Positions 13,685 through 46,218 of a stretch of 64,000 nucleotides of DNA are shown piece by piece. Source of the DNA: an uncultured Candidatus Rokubacteria bacterium (GTDB lineage Bacteria > Methylomirabilota > Methylomirabilia > Rokubacteriales > DASRDR01); contig CAVPSB010000032.1 in the NCBI GenBank assembly GCA_963708025.1, positions 64,001 to 128,000 of the forward strand, written 5' to 3'. The notes under the pieces are model-generated. The model made no database searches and had not been told where the DNA came from. It saw only the letters and a list, made by a program, of their open reading frames with translations. The position numbers and the translations under genes were made by a program. Each line of letters starts with the position of its first letter. Position 1 is the first letter of the stretch.

Positions 13685-14968
13685 GTGGACGTCAACCGAC
13701 TGATCCTCGACCTGCTCCTCCTGGTGGGCTTCCTGGCCGCCTCGGCGCTGCTGGCCGGGGCGGAGGCGGCCTACTTCTCGCTGAGCCGTCACGGGACGGT
13801 CCGGCTGGAGGGCGGGGAGGGCGCCGATCGCTCGCCGCTGGCGCGCCTCCTCGAGAAGCCGCACGAGCTCTTGATCACGATCCTGGTCGGCATCACGCTC
13901 GTCAACATCGCGAGCTCGGCCCTCGCCACCACGGTCGCCACGGCGCTTTTCGGCCCACGGGGCGTCGCGATCGCCATCCCGGCGATGATCTTCCTCATCG
14001 TCGTCTTCGGCGAGGTCCTGCCGATGACGATCGCGGTCGATGCGCCCCAGCGGTTCGGCCGGCTCGCCGCCCGGCCGGTGCTGCTCCTCGCCTACGTGCT
14101 CACGCCGGTGCGGGCGATGCTGGGCGCCTTCACCGCGCTCGTCTCGCGGGCGGTGGCCCGCGAGGAGACGCCGCAGACCGCGATCACCGAGGCCGAGCTG
14201 CGGACGCTGGTCGAGGTGGGGCACCGCGAGGGCGTCGTCGAGCGCAGCGAGCGGGAGATGATCCACGGCGTGTTCGAGCTGGGGGACACGACCGTGTGGG
14301 ACATCATGACGCCCCGCACTGACATCTTCGGCGTCGACCTCACGACGCCGCCGGCCCGGCTCCTCGACGAGCTGCGGACCCATCTGCACCACCGGGTCCC
14401 GGTCTACGAAGACAGCCTCGACCACATCGTGGGCATCCTCTTCACGCGGGACCTCTTGCCGTACTACCGCGGCTTGCCGTCCGATTTTGACCTCCGCCGC
14501 CACCTCGTCCCTCCGTACTTCGTCCCCCAGACCAAGCGGGCGGACGCGCTGCTGCGGGAGTTCCAGGCCAAGAAGCTGCGGATGGCGATCGTGGTCGACG
14601 AGTACGGGGGGACCGCCGGGCTGGTCACGCTGGAGGACATCCTGGAGGAGGTGGTAGGCGAGATCCGGGACGAGTTCGAGGCCGAGGAGCGGCTCGCCCA
14701 GCGGGTGGACGAGCGGACCTGGCGGGTGGCGGCCAAGATGGCGATCGCCGACTTCAACCGGCTCACCGGGCTCGCCATCCCGGACGACAACTTCGACACC
14801 GTGGGCGGGTGGGTCCTCGACCTCTTCGGCCGCGTCCCCCACCGGGGCGAGAGCGTGGAGGCCGGCGGGGTCCGGGTGACCGTCGAGAAGGTGCACCGGA
14901 CCCGCATCCTGGAGGTGCTGGTCCGCTTGTCGGCCTCGCCGCCGGCGCCGCCGGAGCCGCCCGAGTGA
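13685..14968 (+). CDS. CNNM/DUF21-CBS-CorC (TlyC/CorB family) membrane protein
   Basis: FGEVLP, IMTPRTDI, VVDEYGGTAGLVTLEDILEEVVGEIRDE. Confidence 0.93.
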   Translation: MDVNRLILDLLLLVGFLAASALLAGAEAAYFSLSRHGTVRLEGGEGADRSPLARLLEKPHELLITILVGITLVNIASSALATTVATALFGPRGVAIAIPAMIFLIVVFGEVLPMTIAVDAPQRFGRLAARPVLLLAYVLTPVRAMLGAFTALVSRAVAREETPQTAITEAELRTLVEVGHREGVVERSEREMIHGVFELGDTTVWDIMTPRTDIFGVDLTTPPARLLDELRTHLHHRVPVYEDSLDHIVGILFTRDLLPYYRGLPSDFDLRRHLVPPYFVPQTKRADALLREFQAKKLRMAIVVDEYGGTAGLVTLEDILEEVVGEIRDEFEAEERLAQRVDERTWRVAAKMAIADFNRLTGLAIPDDNFDTVGGWVLDLFGRVPHRGESVEAGGVRVTVEKVHRTRILEVLVRLSASPPAPPEPPE

Positions 14969-16224
14969 GCGCCCTGCTGGTCGTGGTCCTCTGCCTGCTC
15001 GCGTCGGCGTTCTTCTCCGCCGCCGAGATGGCGTTCATCGCCGCCAACCGCATCAAGCTGCGCCACCTCGCCGAGCAGGGCTCGCGGGTGGCCCGCAGGT
15101 ACGTGGAGGCCTTCGAGCGGCCGGAGCGCCTCCTCTCCACGGCCATGATGGGCGTCACCATCGCCCACGTCTCGGCCGCGGCGCTGACGACAGCCCTGCT
15201 CCTGCCGTGGCTGGATCGAAAGGCGGCCTTGTGGGCCACCGTCATCCTCACCCCGGTCATGCTGGTCTTCGGCGAGATCCTGCCGAAGAGCCTCACCCAG
15301 CAGCGGGCCACCGCGGTGGCCCTCCGGACCTTCCATGCGCTGCGCGTCGCCGCCTGGCTGCTCGCCCCGCTGGTGTGGGCGGCCAACGCGCTCGTCGGCG
15401 CCATCCTCCGGGGCCTGGGCTACCGGGAGCGCCACGACCCGTTCGTCTCCCGGGACGACCTTCGCCTGCTCTTCCAGGTCGAGCCGACCGGCGCGACCGA
15501 CGTGAAGGAGGAAGAGCGGGAGATGATCGACGGGATCTTCCACCTCGGCGAGACGACCGTTCGCGAGATCATGGTGCCGCTGGTCGACGTGCTGGCGGTC
15601 CCCGAGGAGGCGACGGTCGAGGAGGCGGTCGCCCGGATCGGCGAGAGCGGCCACTCCCGCCTGCCGGTGTACCGGGAGCGCATCGACCACGTGATCGGCG
15701 TCGTGGCGGCGCTGGACATCCTGCAGCGGGGGGCGACCGAGGAGGGCGTGAAGGCGCTGCTCCGGCCCGCCTACTACGTCCCCGAGACCAAGCGCATCGA
15801 CGACCTCCTGCGCGAGATGCAGCGCCAGCGCATCCAGCTCGCCGTGGTGGTCGACGAGTACGGCGGGAGCGAAGGCATCGTGAGCGTGGAGGACATCGTC
15901 GAGCAGATCGTGGGCGAGATCGAGGACGAGCACACCCGCACGCCCTCCACGCTGACTTCGCTTCCCGACGGGAGCTACCTGGTCGCGGCCCGGCTGGGCA
16001 TCGACGAGCTGAACGAGACGCTGGAGTGGGATCTCCCGAAGAAGGACTACGAGACGGTGGGCGGGCTCATCCTCTCTGCCCTCGGCCGGATCCCCCGGCC
16101 GGGCGAGCAGGTCGTCCTGGATCGGTACGAGCTGTCCGTGGTGGACGCCGACGAGCGCCGCATCCTGAAGGTCAAGGTGAAGGCCCGCGACCGGGGCCCG
16201 ATGAGCGACCAGCCCCGGATGTGA
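14965..16224 (+). CDS. CNNM/DUF21-CBS-CorC membrane protein, paralog 2
   Basis: [35 protein letters not shown] overlap with the upstream stop. Confidence 0.93.
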
Positions 16225-16335
16225 GAGCGTGTGAAGGAATGGGTCGTCCGACTCCCCCCTCCCCTCGGCCACAGGCCGAAGGCCGTCGAACGATGGGGGA
16301 GGGGGGCCTGGGGGGGTGGGCGGGAGGTCCCGAAC
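16222..16335 (+). repeat. Family B element (one module)
   Basis: TGAGAGCGTGTGAAG...GGGTGGGCGGGAGGTCCCGAAC. Confidence 0.9.
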
Positions 16336-16381
16336 CATGCACGGCCGCCCGTCGGGCGCGCCGACACGAGGAGGTCAGCGA

Positions 16382-17053
16382 ATGGCTGGAACGATGGTGG
16401 AGTTCCCGGCGAACGGCACGACCACGGCGGGGTACCTGGCCACGCCCGCCACCGGGAAGGGTCCCGGCGTGCTCGTCATCCAGGAGTGGTGGGGGCTGGT
16501 CGGCCACATCAAGAGCGTGTGCGACCGCTTCGCCGCCGAGGGCTTCAGCGCGCTGGCGCCGGACATGTATCACGGCCAGACGGCCAGCGAGCCCGACGGG
16601 GCGGGCAAGCTCTTCATGGCGCTCAACATCGGCCAGGCTGAGAAGGACCTGAGGGGCGCGGCGAGGTACCTCGCCCAGCACTCCTCGACCGCCAAGCTGG
16701 GCGCGGTCGGCTTCTGCATGGGCGGGCAGCTCGCGCTCTTCGCCGCCACCCTCAACCCGTCGATCGGGGCCTGCGTGAACTTCTACGGGATCCACCCCAA
16801 CGTCAAGCCGGACTACGCCAGGCTGGCCGGCCCGGTCCTCGGGCTCTATGCCGAGAAGGACGGGTTCGTGACGCCCCAGGTGGCCCGGGACGTGGACGCG
16901 GCGATCAGGAAGGCCGGCAAGCAGTCGGAGATCCACGTCTATCCCGGGGTGGACCACGCCTTCTTCAACGACGAGCGCGCCGACGTCTACGACCGGGCGG
17001 CGGCCGACGACGCGTGGCGGCGGACGCTGGCCTTCTTCCGCCAGCATCTGTAA
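16382..17053 (+). CDS. Dienelactone hydrolase family protein
   Basis: QEWWGL, GFCMGG, HAFFN motifs; GAGGAGG SD. Confidence 0.93.
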   Translation: MAGTMVEFPANGTTTAGYLATPATGKGPGVLVIQEWWGLVGHIKSVCDRFAAEGFSALAPDMYHGQTASEPDGAGKLFMALNIGQAEKDLRGAARYLAQHSSTAKLGAVGFCMGGQLALFAATLNPSIGACVNFYGIHPNVKPDYARLAGPVLGLYAEKDGFVTPQVARDVDAAIRKAGKQSEIHVYPGVDHAFFNDERADVYDRAAADDAWRRTLAFFRQHL

Positions 17054-17054
17054 A

Positions 17055-17133
17055 GGGGTCAGGCCTTTCATTCTTGACAATCCAGCGCGGCCGCATCGCC
17101 GCCCCAGATTGATAAGAATGGAAGGCCTGACCC
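17055..17133. repeat. Family C element between convergent genes (possible bidirectional terminator)
   Basis: GGGGTCAGGCCTTTCATTCTT...AAGAATGGAAGGCCTGACCC fills the gap between the two stop codons. Confidence 0.85.
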
Positions 17134-17597
17134 TAGCCGGCGCCGGCGGCGGCCGCCACCTTCCGCTGCTTCTTGGCTTCCTTGCCCCTCGGCTCGGCGG
17201 CCTTCCCCTTGCCCTTGTCCTTCTTCTCCTTCGGAGCTTCCGGCCGATCCACGAATTCCAGGATGGCCATCGGGGCGCCGTCACCGTGCCGGTTCCCGGT
17301 CTGGATGATCCGCGTGTAACCACCCCGCCGGTCCGCGTACCGCGCGGCCACGGAATCGAAGAGCTTCCGGACCGCCACCACGTCGGCGACGAGCTGCAGG
17401 GCCTGGCGTCGCGCGTGGAGGTTCTCGCGCTTGGAGAGCGTCACCAGGTGGTCGGCCAGCGGTCGCAGCGCCTTGGCCTTGGCCACGGTGGTGGTGATCC
17501 GCTCGTGCTGCACGAGCGAGGTGAGCTGGTTCCGGAACAGCGCCCAGCGGTGGGCGGTGACCCGGCCGAGCTTGGTGCCGGCTTTCCGGTGTCTCAT
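17133..17597 (-). CDS. rplQ: 50S ribosomal protein L17
   Basis: MRHRKAGTKLGR...HERITTT...GGYTRI; Lys-rich tail. Confidence 0.97.
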   Translation of the reverse strand: MRHRKAGTKLGRVTAHRWALFRNQLTSLVQHERITTTVAKAKALRPLADHLVTLSKRENLHARRQALQLVADVVAVRKLFDSVAARYADRRGGYTRIIQTGNRHGDGAPMAILEFVDRPEAPKEKKDKGKGKAAEPRGKEAKKQRKVAAAAGAG

Positions 17598-18343
17598 GAC
17601 GATGCCTTGGCCTCGCCGGGCACCACCCGCTCGACGGGCGTCTCCTCGTCCTCCTCCTCGGCGCCGGCCGGGGTGAAGAGGTCGAAGTGGTCCCGCAGGA
17701 GCCGGGAGGCCCGGAGGAGCGACTGGTCCGGCGTGATGGTGCCGTTGGTCCAAACCTCGACCACGAGCTTCTCGTAGTCGGTGATCTTCCCCAGCCGGGA
17801 CATCTCGACCGTGTAGTTGACGCGCTGGATGGGGGAGAACGCCGAATCCACGGCGATGGCGCCGGCCGGTGCGGCCTCCGCGTGGCCATCCGCCGACACG
17901 TAGCCGCGGCCGATCCGGATTCCCAGCTCGAGGGTGATCTGGCTCCCCGCCTCCACGGCGAAGAGCGGCAGGTCCGGGTTGATCACCTCGACGCCCATCC
18001 CGCCCAGCTCGCCGGCGGTGACGGTCTTCGGGCCCCTCACCTCGAGCCGGGCGGTGGCCGGCTTGTCCTCGGCGACCCGCACGACGATCTTCTTGACGTT
18101 GAGGAGCAGCGAGGCGAGGTCTTCCTGGACGCCCTTCACGCGGCTGTCGTTGGCCGACACCCCCGGGAACTTCGCCCACACCACCGCGGCCCCCGGAATG
18201 ACGGACAGCAGCACCCGCCGCAGCGAGTTCCCCACCGTCAGCGCGTACCCCTTCTCGAACGGCTCGGCGACCATCCGGCCGAACCGGGGGCCGAGATCCT
18301 CCCACTCGATCCGCCGTGGTCGCTGGAACATCAATCGAGGCAT
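17594..18343 (-). CDS. rpoA: RNA polymerase alpha subunit, N-terminal domain only (249 aa)
   Basis: EPFEKGY..TVGNSLRRVLLS, GRGYV, DSAFSPI.RVNY.VE, DYEKL..EVWTNG; canonical position between rpsD and rplQ. Confidence 0.93.
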   Translation of the reverse strand: MPRLMFQRPRRIEWEDLGPRFGRMVAEPFEKGYALTVGNSLRRVLLSVIPGAAVVWAKFPGVSANDSRVKGVQEDLASLLLNVKKIVVRVAEDKPATARLEVRGPKTVTAGELGGMGVEVINPDLPLFAVEAGSQITLELGIRIGRGYVSADGHAEAAPAGAIAVDSAFSPIQRVNYTVEMSRLGKITDYEKLVVEVWTNGTITPDQSLLRASRLLRDHFDLFTPAGAEEEDEETPVERVVPGEAKASS

Positions 18344-18353
18344 CGGACCACCC

Positions 18354-18977
18354 CTACTTCGAGTACAGCTCGACGATGAGCTGCTCCTGCACCGGGATCT
18401 GGATGTCGTCGCGGAGCGGCAGGCTTCGCACCACCGCCCGCTTCTCGGCCGGCGCCAGCTCCATCCACTGGGGCACCTGGCCCCGGCCGGCCGACAGGTT
18501 CTCGGCCACGCGCTCCTGGAGGCTCGAGCTCGGCCGGAGCTGGACCTGGTCGCCGACCTTGATGAGGAACGAGGGCAGCGACACCTTGCGCCCGTTCACC
18601 TGGATGTGGCCGTGGCGGACGATCTGTCGCGACTCGGCTCGGGAGGCGCCGAAGCCCAGCCGGAAGACGACGTTGTCGAGCCGCCGCTCGAGGAGGCGCA
18701 GCAGGTTCTCGCCGGTCACGCCGCGCTCGCGCTCCGCCCGCTCGAAGTAGCGGCGGAACTGGCCCTCGAGCAGCCCGTAGATGCGCTTGGCCTTCTGCTT
18801 CTCCCGGAGCTGCTCGCCGTAAGCCGACCGCTTGGAGCGGCCCAGGCCGTGCTGGCCGGGCGGATAGTTCCGCCGCTCGATCGCGCACTTCTCCGTGAAG
18901 CAGCGCGATCCCTTCAAGAAGAGCTTCAGACCTTCCCGCCGGCACAGCCGGCACACCGACCCTGTATACCTAGCCAA
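18354..18977 (-). CDS. rpsD: 30S ribosomal protein S4
   Basis: TTG start after [35 protein letters not shown]. Confidence 0.97.
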
Positions 18978-19014
18978 AATAGATCCTCCTGAACATCGCG
19001 ATAACTTGCGGGCT

Positions 19015-19220
19015 GCGCCGGGCCGAGAACCGAGCAGCCCCCTCAGGCCGAAGGTTGTCCGCTGGACGCAGGCCCGCGCCCCCTGGTACACCGAGGATGG
19101 GCGCGGGCCGAGGACGACCATAGGCCGGGACGGCCGCCCTGAGGCCGAAGGCCGTCCGAAAAGCGCAGGCCGAGCGCGTCCCGGCCGAGATGGAACTCGC
19201 GAAGGTTATCGGCACGGCGC
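19015..19220 (+). repeat. Family A element between rpsK and rpsD
   Basis: GCGCCGgGCCGAgAACC...GGTTaTCGGCaCGGCGC terminal stem. Confidence 0.9.
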
Positions 19221-19636
19221 TACACCCTGCGTCGCTTCGGGGGTCGGCAGCCGTCGTGCGGGATCGGCGTGACGTCGCGGATCGACGTGATCTCGAGGCC
19301 GACGGCCTGCAGGGACCGGATCGCCGCCTCGCGGCCCGCGCCCGGCCCCTTCACGAACACCTCGACCTGCTTGAGGCCGATCTCCATCGCCTTGCGGGCC
19401 GCGTTCTCCGCCGCCATCTGGGCGGCGAAGGGCGTGCTCTTGCGCGAGCCCTTGAAGCCCACGCTCCCGGCGCTGGCCCAGGTCACGACCCCCCCCATCT
19501 TGTCGGTGATCGTCACGATCGTGTTGTTGAAGGTGGCCTGCACGTGAGCGATCCCCGTGCGGACCTCCTTCCGCTCCTTCTTCTTGCCGCCCTTCTTCCG
19601 CGGCTTGCCTGCTGACGGTGTCGGCTGCTCGGCCAT
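19220..19636 (-). CDS. rpsK: 30S ribosomal protein S11
   Basis: [30 protein letters not shown]. Confidence 0.98.
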
Positions 19637-19684: not shown

Positions 19685-20086
19685 TCACGACTTGCCGGTC
19701 GTCGGGTTCTTCGACGTCGCCTTTCGCCGGATACCGACACCGCGGCGGGGCCCCTTGCGGGTCCGGGCGTTCGTATGCGTGCGCTGCCCCCGCACCGGCA
19801 ACCCCTTGCGGTGCCGGATTCCGCGATAGGAGCTGATGTCCATCAGGCGCTTGATGTTCATCGAGACCTCGCGGCGGAGGTCCCCCTCGACCCGATACTC
19901 GCGCTCGATGATCTCGCGAAGCCGCCCCACCTCGTCGTCGGACCACTCCTTCACCCGCCGGTTCAGGTCGATCGCGGCCGTGCCGAGGATCCGGCGGGCC
20001 GAGGACCGCCCCAGACCGTAGATGTAGGTGAGCGCCACCTCGCCCCGCTTGTCCCGCGGCAGATCGACACCGGCGATTCGTGCCAT
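19685..20086 (-). CDS. rpsM: 30S ribosomal protein S13
   Basis: [28 protein letters not shown]. Confidence 0.98.

Positions 20087-37869: not shown

Positions 37870-42117
<4,248 letters not shown>

Positions 42118-42198: not shown

Positions 42199-46218
<4,020 letters not shown>

Follow-up and report, generated by a model that had tools for sequence, protein, structure and literature searches.

To our knowledge, alpha, the RNA polymerase (RNAP) subunit, is regarded as a homodimer in almost all bacteria, with Francisella as the one exception that has been worked out. In this genus, rpoA1 belongs to the ribosomal operon and rpoA2 is located elsewhere, and their products, alpha1 and alpha2, enter RNAP as an oriented heterodimer (PMC3294249). 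As far as the account in the same source extends, rpoA is also duplicated in Chloroflexus spp. and Streptomyces avermitilis, Psychromonas and Leptospira have recent copies that are identical, and no drastic substitutions at the dimerization or beta/beta' positions are reported for Chloroflexus; moreover, oriented heterodimers have been engineered in E. coli by using one R45A subunit. Alphas devoid of the C-terminal domain (CTD) are described in PMC8321222 for reduced genomes, such as those of Hodgkinia, Tremblaya, Parcubacteria, and microalgal plastids, where the N-terminal domain (NTD) alone makes up the only alpha. Finally, archaea and eukaryotes use alpha-like heterodimers, namely Rpo3/Rpo11, RPB3/RPB11, and AC40/AC19, in which two distinct subunits take fixed, non-equivalent positions and the partner on the beta' side is reduced (PMC3294249, PMC13374769).

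The window analyzed here, a stretch of 64,000 nucleotides from an uncultured Candidatus Rokubacteria bacterium, contains an alpha gene that touches on each of these systems. Like Francisella, this bacterium has two diverged rpoA genes, one in the ribosomal operon (alpha-op) and one elsewhere (alpha-solo). Judged by the parts of PMC3294249 that deal with these features, the two systems also share a lineage-specific duplication, paralogs that both outpace sole alphas in evolution, and substitutions at beta/beta' contact positions, with K200 altered in the presumed beta-side paralog in each case. The differences are that the Rokubacterial pair, known from sequence alone, extends over an entire order of bacteria, uncultured and from soil and groundwater, instead of one genus; that R45, the key beta determinant, is lost in Francisella alpha2 and kept in both Rokubacterial paralogs; that the operon copy probably sits on the beta' side, the reverse of Francisella; and that one paralog lacks the entire CTD in two families, f1 (the family of the window) and f4. 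Unlike the Chloroflexus copies, as far as these are described, each Rokubacterial paralog lacks an otherwise invariant motif, and unlike the reduced genomes, the genome studied here measures 8.2 Mb and also encodes a full-length alpha. In the Rpo3/Rpo11-type pairs, as portrayed in the sources above, the CTD is not involved, extra small assembly subunits are needed, and the split is ancient, whereas the Rokubacterial pair arose within bacteria. The engineered E. coli enzymes likewise have non-identical protomers at defined positions, but they are laboratory constructs, of which a Rokubacterial RNAP would be the natural, fixed version. Within the literature covered (main texts, few of them from subscription journals), no report of an alpha duplication in Rokubacteria or Methylomirabilota was found, the terms rpoA1/rpoA2 led to Francisella, archaeal, and unrelated uses only, and nothing was added on natural single-CTD polymerases.

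The alpha gene of the ribosomal operon

Alpha-op occupies positions 17594..18343 on the minus strand, within a gene order, S13-S11-S4-alpha-L17, that equals the rpsM-rpsK-rpsD-rpoA-rplQ order of E. coli. On the same strand, rpsM (S13) lies at 19685..20086, rpsK (S11) at 19220..19636, and rpsD (S4) at 18354..18980 (start coordinate approximate), directly upstream of alpha-op and with its stop 10 nt from the alpha ATG; rplQ (L17) follows at 17133..17597, and its ATG overlaps the TGA of alpha-op as ATGA at 17594-17597, just as a sequence-only reading of the window had described. That reading had also reported an rpoA of only 249 amino acids without a CTD, and both points hold: the translated open reading frame contains ..GVSANDSRVKGVQED.. 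and ends in ..FDLFTPAGAEEEDEETPVERVVPGEAKASS, it matches the Pfam families RNA_pol_L at residues 27-220 (E 7.9e-22) and RNA_pol_A_bac at residues 67-170 (E 2.4e-20), and it gives no match to RNA_pol_A_CTD (PF03118) even at E <= 1. The protein consists of the whole alpha NTD and a stub of acidic linker, ending 24 residues past the last NTD helix. This stub (residues 226-249, minus strand 17597..17668) begins with AGAEEEDEE, an acidic start conserved in the tails of the 19 f1 op copies and of the single f4 copy, and continues with about 15 variable residues predicted to be disordered.

The NTD had been called divergent, with a usually conserved segment replaced, and this proved correct: by alignment and group profiles, residues 63-70, SANDSRVK (minus strand 18134..18157), take the place of L-H-E-F-S-x at E. 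coli 65-72, so that A-N-D-S is read at H66-E67-F/Y68-S69. A second motif, RLGKITDY at residues 183-190 (minus strand 17774..17797; E. coli 191-198), is retained. In comparisons with PDB sequences, alpha-op gives alpha NTD matches over residues 12-239, down to E 5.5e-53, and chains A and B of 6wmp, the Francisella heterodimer, are among them. The AF2 model has a mean pLDDT of 86.7, with values below 50 only at residues 1-5 and 229-249, and Foldseek aligns it to solved alpha NTDs at TM 0.79-0.86 (target-length normalized). The NTD is divergent yet whole.

A gene of this kind could be the product of misassembly, misbinning, or a sequencing deletion, and the genome itself, with 49 contigs and an estimated contamination of 8.18%, gives some cause for such a suspicion. 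We consider an artifact hardly credible, and as far as sequence data reach it is refuted. The short form occurs in 18 further f1 genomes, 17 of them with 247-255 aa and the remaining one, G018, with the copy fused to L17; moreover, the best 120 public metagenome protein clusters for alpha-op are all 224-268 aa long, 64-96% identical to it, and made of the same two domains only. A deletion around the junction, a concern raised along with the original observation, is not seen: contigs from two further DNA runs, made in different studies and one run perhaps being the source sample itself, span rpoA/rplQ gap-free (X7 record 26, 17200-17788; X2 record 18, 17546-17664). Three low-support joints among the matching contigs, which have sides 22-28 letters long with 90% likeness, were set aside as probably belonging to other organisms. 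The stretch 17580-18270 is matched, with 95-97% identity, by contigs of a single RNA library that was deposited under two entries, X15 and X16; they are a weak sign of expression and are not counted as proof of it, because DNA carry-over is possible.

The full-length paralog and the history of the pair

The sequence-only reading had left three ways out for a bacterium with such a gene: transcription without any alpha-CTD, a free-standing CTD gene, or a second rpoA. The last one applies. Contig C18 of the same genome (G000) encodes, at about 14524-15516 and next to an mltG-like gene, an alpha of 330 aa with a CTD (PF03118, 98.1 bits), which is 39-40% identical to alpha-op in the best local alignments and belongs to a separate transcription unit. 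The first way out is therefore unsupported, since this genome does encode a full-length alpha, and no free-standing CTD gene was found in it, the only extra PF03118 match being insignificant (E 0.73, 12.9 bits). The large subunits are each encoded by a single gene as far as found in this genome: rpoB (42199..46218, minus strand) accounts for the one PF00562 match, at C32:106454-108001 or 42454-44001 of the window, with no second, and rpoC (37870..42117, minus strand) holds all PF00623 matches, which are confined to one open frame of 1442 aa.

Contamination or misbinning as the origin of the second rpoA was considered and rejected, as C18 and C32, the contig of the window, have the same composition (GC 0.714 vs 0.709; tetranucleotide r 0.997) and the paralogs share a contig in six relatives, which also speaks against an artifact in the short gene; in addition, the op tree and the solo tree both put G000 among the same relatives.

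The pair is conserved throughout the order. In the sample of 183 Rokubacteriales genomes, two or more alpha matches are found in 85 of the 97 that are at least 90% complete, vs 2/38 for the sister orders, and two PF01000 matches occur in 36 of 41 genomes, the six with both on one contig being among these. The operon copy is of the op type at every Rokubacteriales operon locus examined, and solo adjoins an mltG-like gene at 26 of 28 solo loci. What differs between the families, of which f3, f4, and f5 are sampled by one genome each, is the CTD of the operon copy. In f1 genomes, PF03118 is found on solo only; an op copy could be recovered from 19 of the 21, 18 of these copies having 247-255 aa, and an op-type copy was not found in one f1 genome of 97% completeness (G006). 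The op copy of f4 is CTD-less as well (237 aa), and those of f2 and f5 reach 323-347 aa, with two or more PF03118 matches in 16 of 17 f2 genomes. The ATGA overlap with rplQ is kept irrespective of this difference, in 18/18 intact genes of f1, 15/16 of f2, and 1/1 of f5, and is ancestral to the order. It is consequently no sign of truncation, as the sequence-only reading had taken it to be, because the CTD-bearing op copies of f2 share it.

Phylogenetic analysis joins op and solo in one clade (SH-aLRT 99 with 95 rows; 100/96 in a more careful tree of 39 rows), whose sister group is formed by the class's remaining orders, with a support of 100/100 for the solo clade and 100/99 for the op clade; the outgroup from other phyla is small, with 16 rows from a pattern scan. 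A horizontal origin of op was entertained and dismissed: the scan returned mostly Planctomycetota after Rokubacteria, yet the trees place op within the phylum, sister to solo. The pair thus derives from a lineage-specific duplication and not from transfer, and the trees support a single duplication of rpoA at the base of Rokubacteriales. The sole alpha of f3 (G022) is compatible with a branching before or after this event; in the 39-row subset, a tree constrained to keep it out of the duplication is worse by 18.3 lnL units (p-AU 0.058).

Both paralogs are under purifying selection. Over 36 pairs from 9 f1 genomes, op has a median dN/dS of 0.233, compared with 0.137 in the NTD and 0.067 in the CTD of solo; the op values range from 0.11 to 0.37 over the whole NTD, and dN is higher in op than in the solo NTD by a median factor of 1.88.

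Reciprocal motif loss and the proposed dimer

Each paralog lacks a different alpha motif that is otherwise invariant. H66-E67-F68-S69 (HEFS) is present in all 16 alphas of other phyla, all 15 of the sister orders, and all 26 solo copies in the group profiles, and missing in each of the 37 op copies, as well as in 11 further op copies of f2, the segment being deleted in the f4 genome (G023). Conversely, R191-x-G193-x-x-T196-D197-Y198 (RVGQxTDY) is kept in 37/37 op copies; in solo it is deleted or replaced (26/26 copies), and the loop beside the beta'-protected segment is 2-4 residues shorter there. Both motifs are kept by the sole alphas of G022 and of G145, a case like those of the reduced genomes above, ~1.0 Mb in size with an alpha of 276 aa and PF03118 absent genome-wide. 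Neither motif falls on the residues listed for the modeled alpha-alpha interface.

Both motifs are within or adjacent to segments of the E. coli footprint, which comprises 65-75 as protected by beta, 195-210 as protected by beta', and the further segments 30-55 and 175-185. The identity of the HEFS segment to sister-order alphas is 0.29 for op vs 0.64 for solo (within each group, 0.41 vs 0.78), and the asymmetry of segment 65-75 is as high in 5 of 218 windows. For the window centered on E. coli 196 the order is inverted, with 0.62 for op vs 0.13 for solo, and the 195-210 segment as defined shows a moderate asymmetry only, 23 of 213 windows being as low. No op/solo asymmetry was found for 30-55 and 175-185, and the dimerization helices (E. 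coli 34-50) are well conserved in both paralogs, with identities to sister orders of 0.68 for solo and 0.66 for op.

In the part of PMC3294249 that names assembly positions, beta' binding is assigned to K86, V173, V180, and K200, beta binding to R45 and L48, and dimerization to F35, T38, L39, I46, S50, and Q227. Solo has four derived changes that are fixed, K86R, I180V, K200R, and deletion of G193, and the first three fall on three of these four beta' positions, K86R and K200R being conservative. Alpha-op of the window has R, L, K, L, I, and K at R45/L48/K86/V173/V180/K200 and Y, T, V, V, V, and H at F35/T38/L39/I46/S50/Q227 (F35Y is fixed in all op), and probably retains what assembly requires. 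R45 is kept in 26/26 solo and 37/37 op copies, and L48 in both paralogs too, so either paralog could in principle bind beta.

These features bear on whether alpha-op is an RNAP subunit at all, since it might be kept for another role, such as that of an assembly or regulatory factor, or only for the translation of rplQ, to which it is coupled by an ATGA conserved order-wide. Its faster evolution and the loss of the CTD and of one conserved motif would suit a protein released from the polymerase. Nevertheless, we hold this to be very unlikely, given the constraint over the entire NTD, a complete fold with a confident model, the conservation of R45, L48, K86, K200, and the RLGKxTDY motif, and the fact that solo itself is without a motif kept by every sole alpha, a loss difficult to account for if solo functions by itself.

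The reading that we favor, at somewhat better than even confidence, is a Francisella-type alpha heterodimer, obligate and oriented, that in this case has only one alpha-CTD per polymerase. After the duplication of rpoA at the base of the order, the solo copy moved beside the mltG-like gene and kept its highly conserved CTD. The op copy, which remained in the operon, changed at roughly double the rate and is without a CTD in f1 and f4. We propose a subfunctionalization by which each paralog has come to take one of the two non-equivalent places in the alpha dimer: solo would act as the beta-associated protomer (alpha-I) and op as its beta'-associated counterpart (alpha-II), giving an alpha-solo/alpha-op/beta/beta' enzyme whose single alpha-CTD, in f1, would be tethered on the beta side. 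An asymmetric dimer had been put forward in the sequence-only reading; the reciprocal motif loss favors it and the structural model is compatible with it, although it is something that we still infer. In that model, op and solo reach a score of 0.75, the best of three controls scoring 0.00, with runs that agree in at least 82% of the contacts and a pLDDT of at least 85 for the partner; among solved complexes 116 of 157 reach the mark passed, and among mismatched pairs 2 of 215 do. Because solved alpha homodimers exist, the pass expresses likeness to solved dimers and is not proof of binding, and the model, made for the op-solo pair only, cannot tell a heterodimer from homodimers.

The heterodimer could also be assembled the other way round, with op on the beta side and solo, carrying the sole CTD, on the beta' side. 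R45 is present in both paralogs, a co-adaptation with beta', instead of relaxation, could underlie what has changed in solo at K86, V180, and K200, and alpha1, the operon copy of Francisella, is the one binding beta according to PMC3294249. This orientation is nonetheless quite improbable: op is without the HEFS segment that beta protects, which is deleted in one genome and variable within op, the solo loop next to the segment protected by beta' is shortened, and the beta'-side alpha-like subunit of archaea and eukaryotes is, in the account of PMC3294249, much the smaller one.

Otherwise, op and solo might each form homodimers, perhaps along with mixed dimers, that assemble with beta and beta' into alternative polymerases, so that an RNAP without alpha-CTDs, insensitive to UP elements and to activators and co-expressed with ribosomal proteins, would exist beside a fully regulatable one. 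The intact R45 and L48, the conserved dimerization helices, and the separate transcription units are in keeping with this arrangement, and several core species have been suggested for Francisella, in whose case, however, homodimers were undetected or weakly detected (PMC3294249, as far as its description goes). A homodimer would lack at both of its positions a motif invariant in all sole alphas examined, HEFS for op and RVGQxTDY for solo. We regard alternative polymerases as unlikely.

Implications for regulation and evolution

Engineered alpha heterodimers have reportedly also been used to put a single CTD on one protomer, and the heterodimer favored above would make the f1 polymerase a natural counterpart. 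UP-element and activator contacts would then be limited to one CTD, and promoter and activator logic would have to differ from the E. coli textbook. If true, the heterodimer would add to Francisella a second case that is independent of it and much broader, spanning an entire order.

The beta'-side alpha-like subunit of archaea and eukaryotes is not known to have an insert domain, which is the site of HEFS. In its widest form, to which we give even chances, our proposal is that the whole order Rokubacteriales, whose members are abundant, uncultured soil bacteria with large genomes, has an obligate, oriented alpha heterodimer, that in one family the beta'-side protomer is without a CTD and its insert domain is eroding, and that this lineage, with its natural single-CTD polymerase, is part-way towards a large and small pair like Rpo3/Rpo11 and RPB3/RPB11. 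The order offers two natural experiments: families that have a CTD, if diverged, on the operon paralog can be set against families that do not, and there is one single-alpha genome that retains both contact motifs. It could be a handle on which alpha protomer's CTD matters, on how the subfunctionalization of a homodimer proceeds, and on how asymmetric pairs of alpha-like subunits may have originated in archaea and eukaryotes.

In metagenome protein records, annotation pipelines name both paralogs simply "RNA polymerase subunit alpha". Pfam families of the alpha domains are among the single-copy markers used for contamination estimates, which are 1-10% for the Rokubacteriales genomes examined, and if they serve as such here, a fixed duplicate would inflate the estimates for this lineage.

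The short operon alpha and its full-length partner

In the ribosomal operon, rpoA (hereafter op) occupies window 17594-18343 on the minus strand as a 249-aa ORF, and its translation contains both strings that a sequence-only reading had quoted from it. Its ATG lies 10 nt past the S4 stop, with a GGGGTGG stretch 5' of it, its TGA shares ATGA with the ATG of rplQ, as that reading had seen, and the local gene order, S13-S11-S4-alpha-L17, is the same in E. coli. Pfam places RNA_pol_L at residues 27-220 and RNA_pol_A_bac (PF01000) at 67-170, i.e., the N-terminal domain (NTD), and finds no alpha C-terminal domain (CTD; PF03118) in the protein, even at E <= 1. Residues 12-239 are matched by PDB alpha subunits (best E 5.5e-53), the AF2 model built on the op alignment (A2) has a mean pLDDT of 86.7 and falls below 50 solely at residues 1-5 and 229-249, and Foldseek relates this model to solved alpha NTDs (TM 0.79-0.86, normalised by target length). 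Because of these results, the predicted op product is a whole NTD with a disordered acidic stub, and the claim that rpoA here lacks the CTD stands. Beside rplQ, on the opposite strand, two ORFs resemble, from their translations alone, a CBS-domain CorC/HlyC-type transporter (14809-16224, plus) and a dienelactone hydrolase (245 aa; 16316-17053, plus).

An artefact as the origin of the short gene has a vanishingly small chance, as judged from short homologs and from contigs of two other DNA runs that span the junction. The best 120 clusters of a 5.8-billion-protein collection (64-96% identity to op) all measure 224-268 aa and hold the two NTD domains and nothing else. The rpoA/rplQ junction, where a check for a deletion had been proposed, is crossed without gaps by record 26 of run X7 (17200-17788, 4 differences) and by record 18 of run X2 (17546-17664, 1 difference), which are DNA runs of different studies, either of which may be the source sample. 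RNA-library contigs span 17580-18270 at 95-97% identity; they hint only weakly at expression, because the runs X15 and X16 are duplicate filings of a single RNA data set, into which DNA may have been carried over.

The source genome (G000; 8.17 Mb, 49 contigs, completeness 99.67, contamination 8.18), in which the window spans C32:64001-128000, has a second alpha gene, hereafter solo, on contig C18. A PF03118 search of this genome gives a single significant match (C18:15235-15429, 98.1 bits) and one further, insignificant one (E 0.73), and PF01000 matches the C18 gene and the window gene. Solo encodes 330 aa with both NTD and CTD, and has ENVLHEFSFLPG at the site where the window's op has PGVSANDSRVKG. 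Thus, of two options raised earlier, a second rpoA elsewhere proved right, and a free-standing CTD gene was not borne out in G000. Solo lies outside any ribosomal cluster, with a divergent MltG/YceG-like gene as neighbour and a ComEC-like metallo-beta-lactamase gene downstream. The composition of C18 vs the window's contig C32 is close (GC 0.714 vs 0.709, tetranucleotide r 0.997), and the beta and beta' genes occur once each in G000, both inside the window.

Two alphas across the order Rokubacteriales

PF01000 matches twice in 36 of 41 genomes (G000 and 40 relatives), on the same contig in six of them (G036, G011, G013, G020, G012, G018); G001, G015, G022 and G038 have one match, and G014, 71% complete, has none. 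The order sample comprised 183 genomes: 21 of the window's family f1 (with G000), 159 of family f2, and one apiece of f3, f4 and f5. Among genomes at least 90% complete, two or more matches occur in 85/97 of the order (13/14 in f1, including G000, and 72/83 in f2) vs 2/38 in the other orders of the class (G061 and G068). With the unpublished G038, G062, G081 and G142 left out, the counts are 84/94 for the order, 2/37 for the other orders and 36/40 for the set of G000 and its relatives.

Paralogs were typed by blastp of all ORFs from the fetched loci. The S4-L17 slot holds the op type in every Rokubacteriales operon locus (53-78% identity to the window protein), and the solo type (64-91% identity to the C18 protein) adjoins an mltG-like gene in 26/28 solo loci (25/27 without G038), the two exceptions being short contig-end loci. 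Within one genome, op and solo share only about 39-40% identity. The comparison of rpoA length in relatives, which had been proposed, separates the families: op is 323-347 aa with a CTD in f2 and f5, 247-255 aa without one in 18/19 f1 copies, and 237 aa without one in f4 (G023). The 19th f1 copy, in G018 (L112:2526-3731, minus), is a 402-aa ORF fused in frame to L17 (RNA_pol_L, RNA_pol_A_bac and Ribosomal_L17, the last at residues 269-365) through a frame change a few codons ahead of the usual ATGA junction, which may reflect either a genuine fusion or one wrongly assembled base. At least two PF03118 matches occur in 16/17 f2 genomes, and two in G024 (f5); the strong ones in f1 belong to solo only. 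Three f1 genomes depart from the pattern. G006 (97% complete) has solo and no detected op-type alpha, and its canonical-looking alpha with a CTD (PF01000 124 bits, L17 adjacent; locus L005) sits on the 1.8-kb contig C358, which is probably mis-binned. In G001, solo is missing, mltG ends one contig and a CTD fragment opens another, and G015 (70% complete) has op alone.

Pairwise dN/dS (Nei-Gojobori, 36 pairs from 9 f1 genomes with both genes complete) has a median of 0.233 for op (range 0.11-0.37), 0.137 for the solo NTD and 0.067 for the solo CTD, non-synonymous change in op being about 1.9 times that in the solo NTD; both are functional genes. The f2 op CTD has an identity of 0.82 within f2 and 0.42 to sister orders (the class's remaining orders) vs 0.68-0.70 for the solo CTD; it retains R265, N268, G296, K298 and S299 and has lost E261 and C269.

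A first tree of 95 alpha rows (quick IQ-TREE, LG+C20, SH-aLRT) omitted the duplicate locus L001, the unpublished L026, the partial or split genes L005, L010, L019, L064, L071, L072, L093 and L117, and the named-record loci L034-L055, which are mostly op-type copies from that same operon setting and of which several duplicate the values of loci already under genome handles. The Rokubacteriales alphas are all united in a single clade (99), to which the other orders' single-copy alphas are the sister group (94). Within it are a solo clade (100), an op clade (99) in which the f3 genome G022 is basal, and the CTD-less f1 and f4 op copies together (87). A careful 39-row tree supports the joint clade (100/96), solo (100/100) and op with G022 (100/99), and does not separate f4 from f1. 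The S13+S11+S4+L17 tree of 51 genomes recovers the order (100) and f1+f4 (92), with no branching order among f3, f2 and (f1+f4). On these trees, the simplest reading would be that rpoA was duplicated once, at the root of the order, and that the CTD was lost once, in the f1+f4 ancestor. The op/rplQ ATGA overlap, seen in 18/18 intact f1 genes, 15/16 in f2 and 1/1 in f5, is ancestral, and f1 therefore lost its op CTD with the ATGA-rplQ junction retained. In f4 the junction is of another form, with TAG and 14 nt of spacer in place of ATGA, so that two independent losses, in f1 and f4, may instead have occurred. The one alpha of G022 (73% complete) is the operon copy, which has a CTD, and the assembled mltG locus of this genome (L131:1-2538, contig C406) reads purA-yqgF-mltG with no rpoA beside it; G022 may be a one-alpha Rokubacterium. 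Uniting solo with op to the exclusion of G022 costs 18.3 lnL units (p-AU 0.058), so that G022 may predate the duplication or may have lost solo afterwards.

Reciprocal motif loss and a candidate heterodimer

In an alignment with E. coli RpoA as reference (L128:4041-5030, minus), the two paralogs lack different motifs. HEFS (H66-E67-F68-S69) is kept in 16/16 alphas of other phyla and 15/15 of sister orders. RVGQxTDY (R191-x-G193-x-x-T196-D197-Y198) is kept in both groups too, save, among the sister orders, in the extra copy of G068. Solo keeps HEFS in 26/26 copies and has RVGQxTDY deleted or replaced in 26/26; op keeps RVGQxTDY in 37/37 and has lost HEFS in 37/37 (variable residues, a deletion in G023), with HEFS also missing from 11 more f2 op copies. 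Sliding-window identity to sister orders has two sharp asymmetries of opposite sense: 0.58-0.66 for solo vs 0.24-0.37 for op around 66-71, and 0.13 vs 0.62 around position 196. Both motifs are retained in sole alphas, namely that of G022 and the CTD-less one of G145, a gammaproteobacterial MAG of ~1.0 Mb whose 276-aa alpha (L069:3983-4810, plus; HEFS and RVGKITDY) sits in an S13-S11-S4-alpha-L17 cluster of a genome with no PF03118 match anywhere; the CTD loss in G145 is of the kind already known from reduced genomes. The long-branch extra alpha of G068 keeps HEF(C) and has lost RVGQxTDY, as in solo, and may be an independent, partial parallel.

A motif kept by all sole alphas would be dispensable in one paralog only if the other provides it where needed. 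Because each paralog has lost a different such motif, we infer that op and solo were subfunctionalised into two non-equivalent protomers of one alpha dimer. The assembly determinants R45 and L48 are present in every op and solo copy; these, and K86, V180 and K200 as three of the four named beta'-binding positions, were taken from PMC3294249. Fixed derived changes are K86R, I180V, the G193 deletion and K200R in solo, and F35Y and F185Y in op; K86R and K200R are conservative and weaken the motif argument. That op serves outside RNA polymerase, to which its faster non-synonymous change could be put down, seems very improbable beside its intact RVGQxTDY, R45 and L48.

A complex model of the solo NTD (A1, the solo alignment) and op (A2), each taken over residues 1-232, scores 0.75, a mark reached by 116/157 solved complexes and 2/215 mismatched pairs, vs 0.00 for the best of three controls; its runs share at least 82% of contacts, with partner pLDDT at least 85. 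Because solved alpha homodimers exist, this pass speaks for likeness to them and is silent on real binding and on hetero- vs homodimer. Separate homodimeric polymerases of op and of solo, compatible with the same score, would each lack a motif that sole alphas keep, and we consider them unlikely. The modelled interface is the canonical helix pair (solo 24-46 and 205-224; op 26-50 and 209-225), and both motif sites fall outside the listed interface residues, unlisted ones being uncertain, which fits a predicted role in contacts to the large subunits, not alpha-alpha.

In E. coli, alpha residues 65-75 are protected by beta and 195-210 by beta', and because of this solo would face beta (alpha-I) and op beta' (alpha-II). 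Within the proposal, this orientation is less secure than the heterodimer itself. The footprint segments in part weaken the motif argument: 5/218 windows are as high as segment 65-75, segment 195-210 as defined is only moderately asymmetric (23/213 windows equally low), and segments 30-55 and 175-185 have no op/solo asymmetry. The heterodimer turned the other way would run against the motif pattern at 65-75 and 195-210 and is improbable. With solo on beta, the f1 and f4 RNA polymerase would carry one alpha-CTD, on the beta-side protomer.

Precedents and related observations

Duplicated alpha and the heterodimer principle are already known. PMC3294249 reports the Francisella pair alpha1/alpha2 along with some further rpoA duplicates, and argues for subfunctionalised protomers in Francisella; the engineered "oriented alpha" enzymes described there would have a natural version in the f1/f4 single-CTD polymerase. 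Sole alphas without a CTD are recorded in PMC8321222 for Hodgkinia, Tremblaya, Parcubacteria and microalgal plastids, and archaeal and eukaryotic alpha-like heterodimers are reviewed in PMC13374769, where Francisella is absent from the main text. No paper linking Rokubacteria or Methylomirabilota to rpoA paralogs or CTD-less alpha was found in a search that lay mostly outside subscription journals. What is new is the scale, a whole order, the clean reciprocal motif loss between op and solo, CTD loss by one of two paralogs in free-living bacteria with large genomes, and a built-in family-to-family comparison.

Some genomes carry other copies. The two alphas of G068 (family f10; L094:7018-8025 and L094:3049-4101, both minus) are separated by 3 kb in a stretch with S13, S4, L17 and S11, and measure 336 and 351 aa, each with a CTD; G061 (f8) also has two PF01000 matches. 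In G141 (f2), a third alpha-like copy (L093:2870-3905) has NTD and CTD in separate frames, a frameshift or pseudogene, and three to four alpha matches occur in the f2 genomes G083, G094, G095, G156, G161 and G162. Estimated contamination is 1-10% across Rokubacteriales genomes. Such estimates draw on single-copy markers that include RpoA-domain families, and a fixed rpoA duplicate would raise them wherever these families serve as markers.
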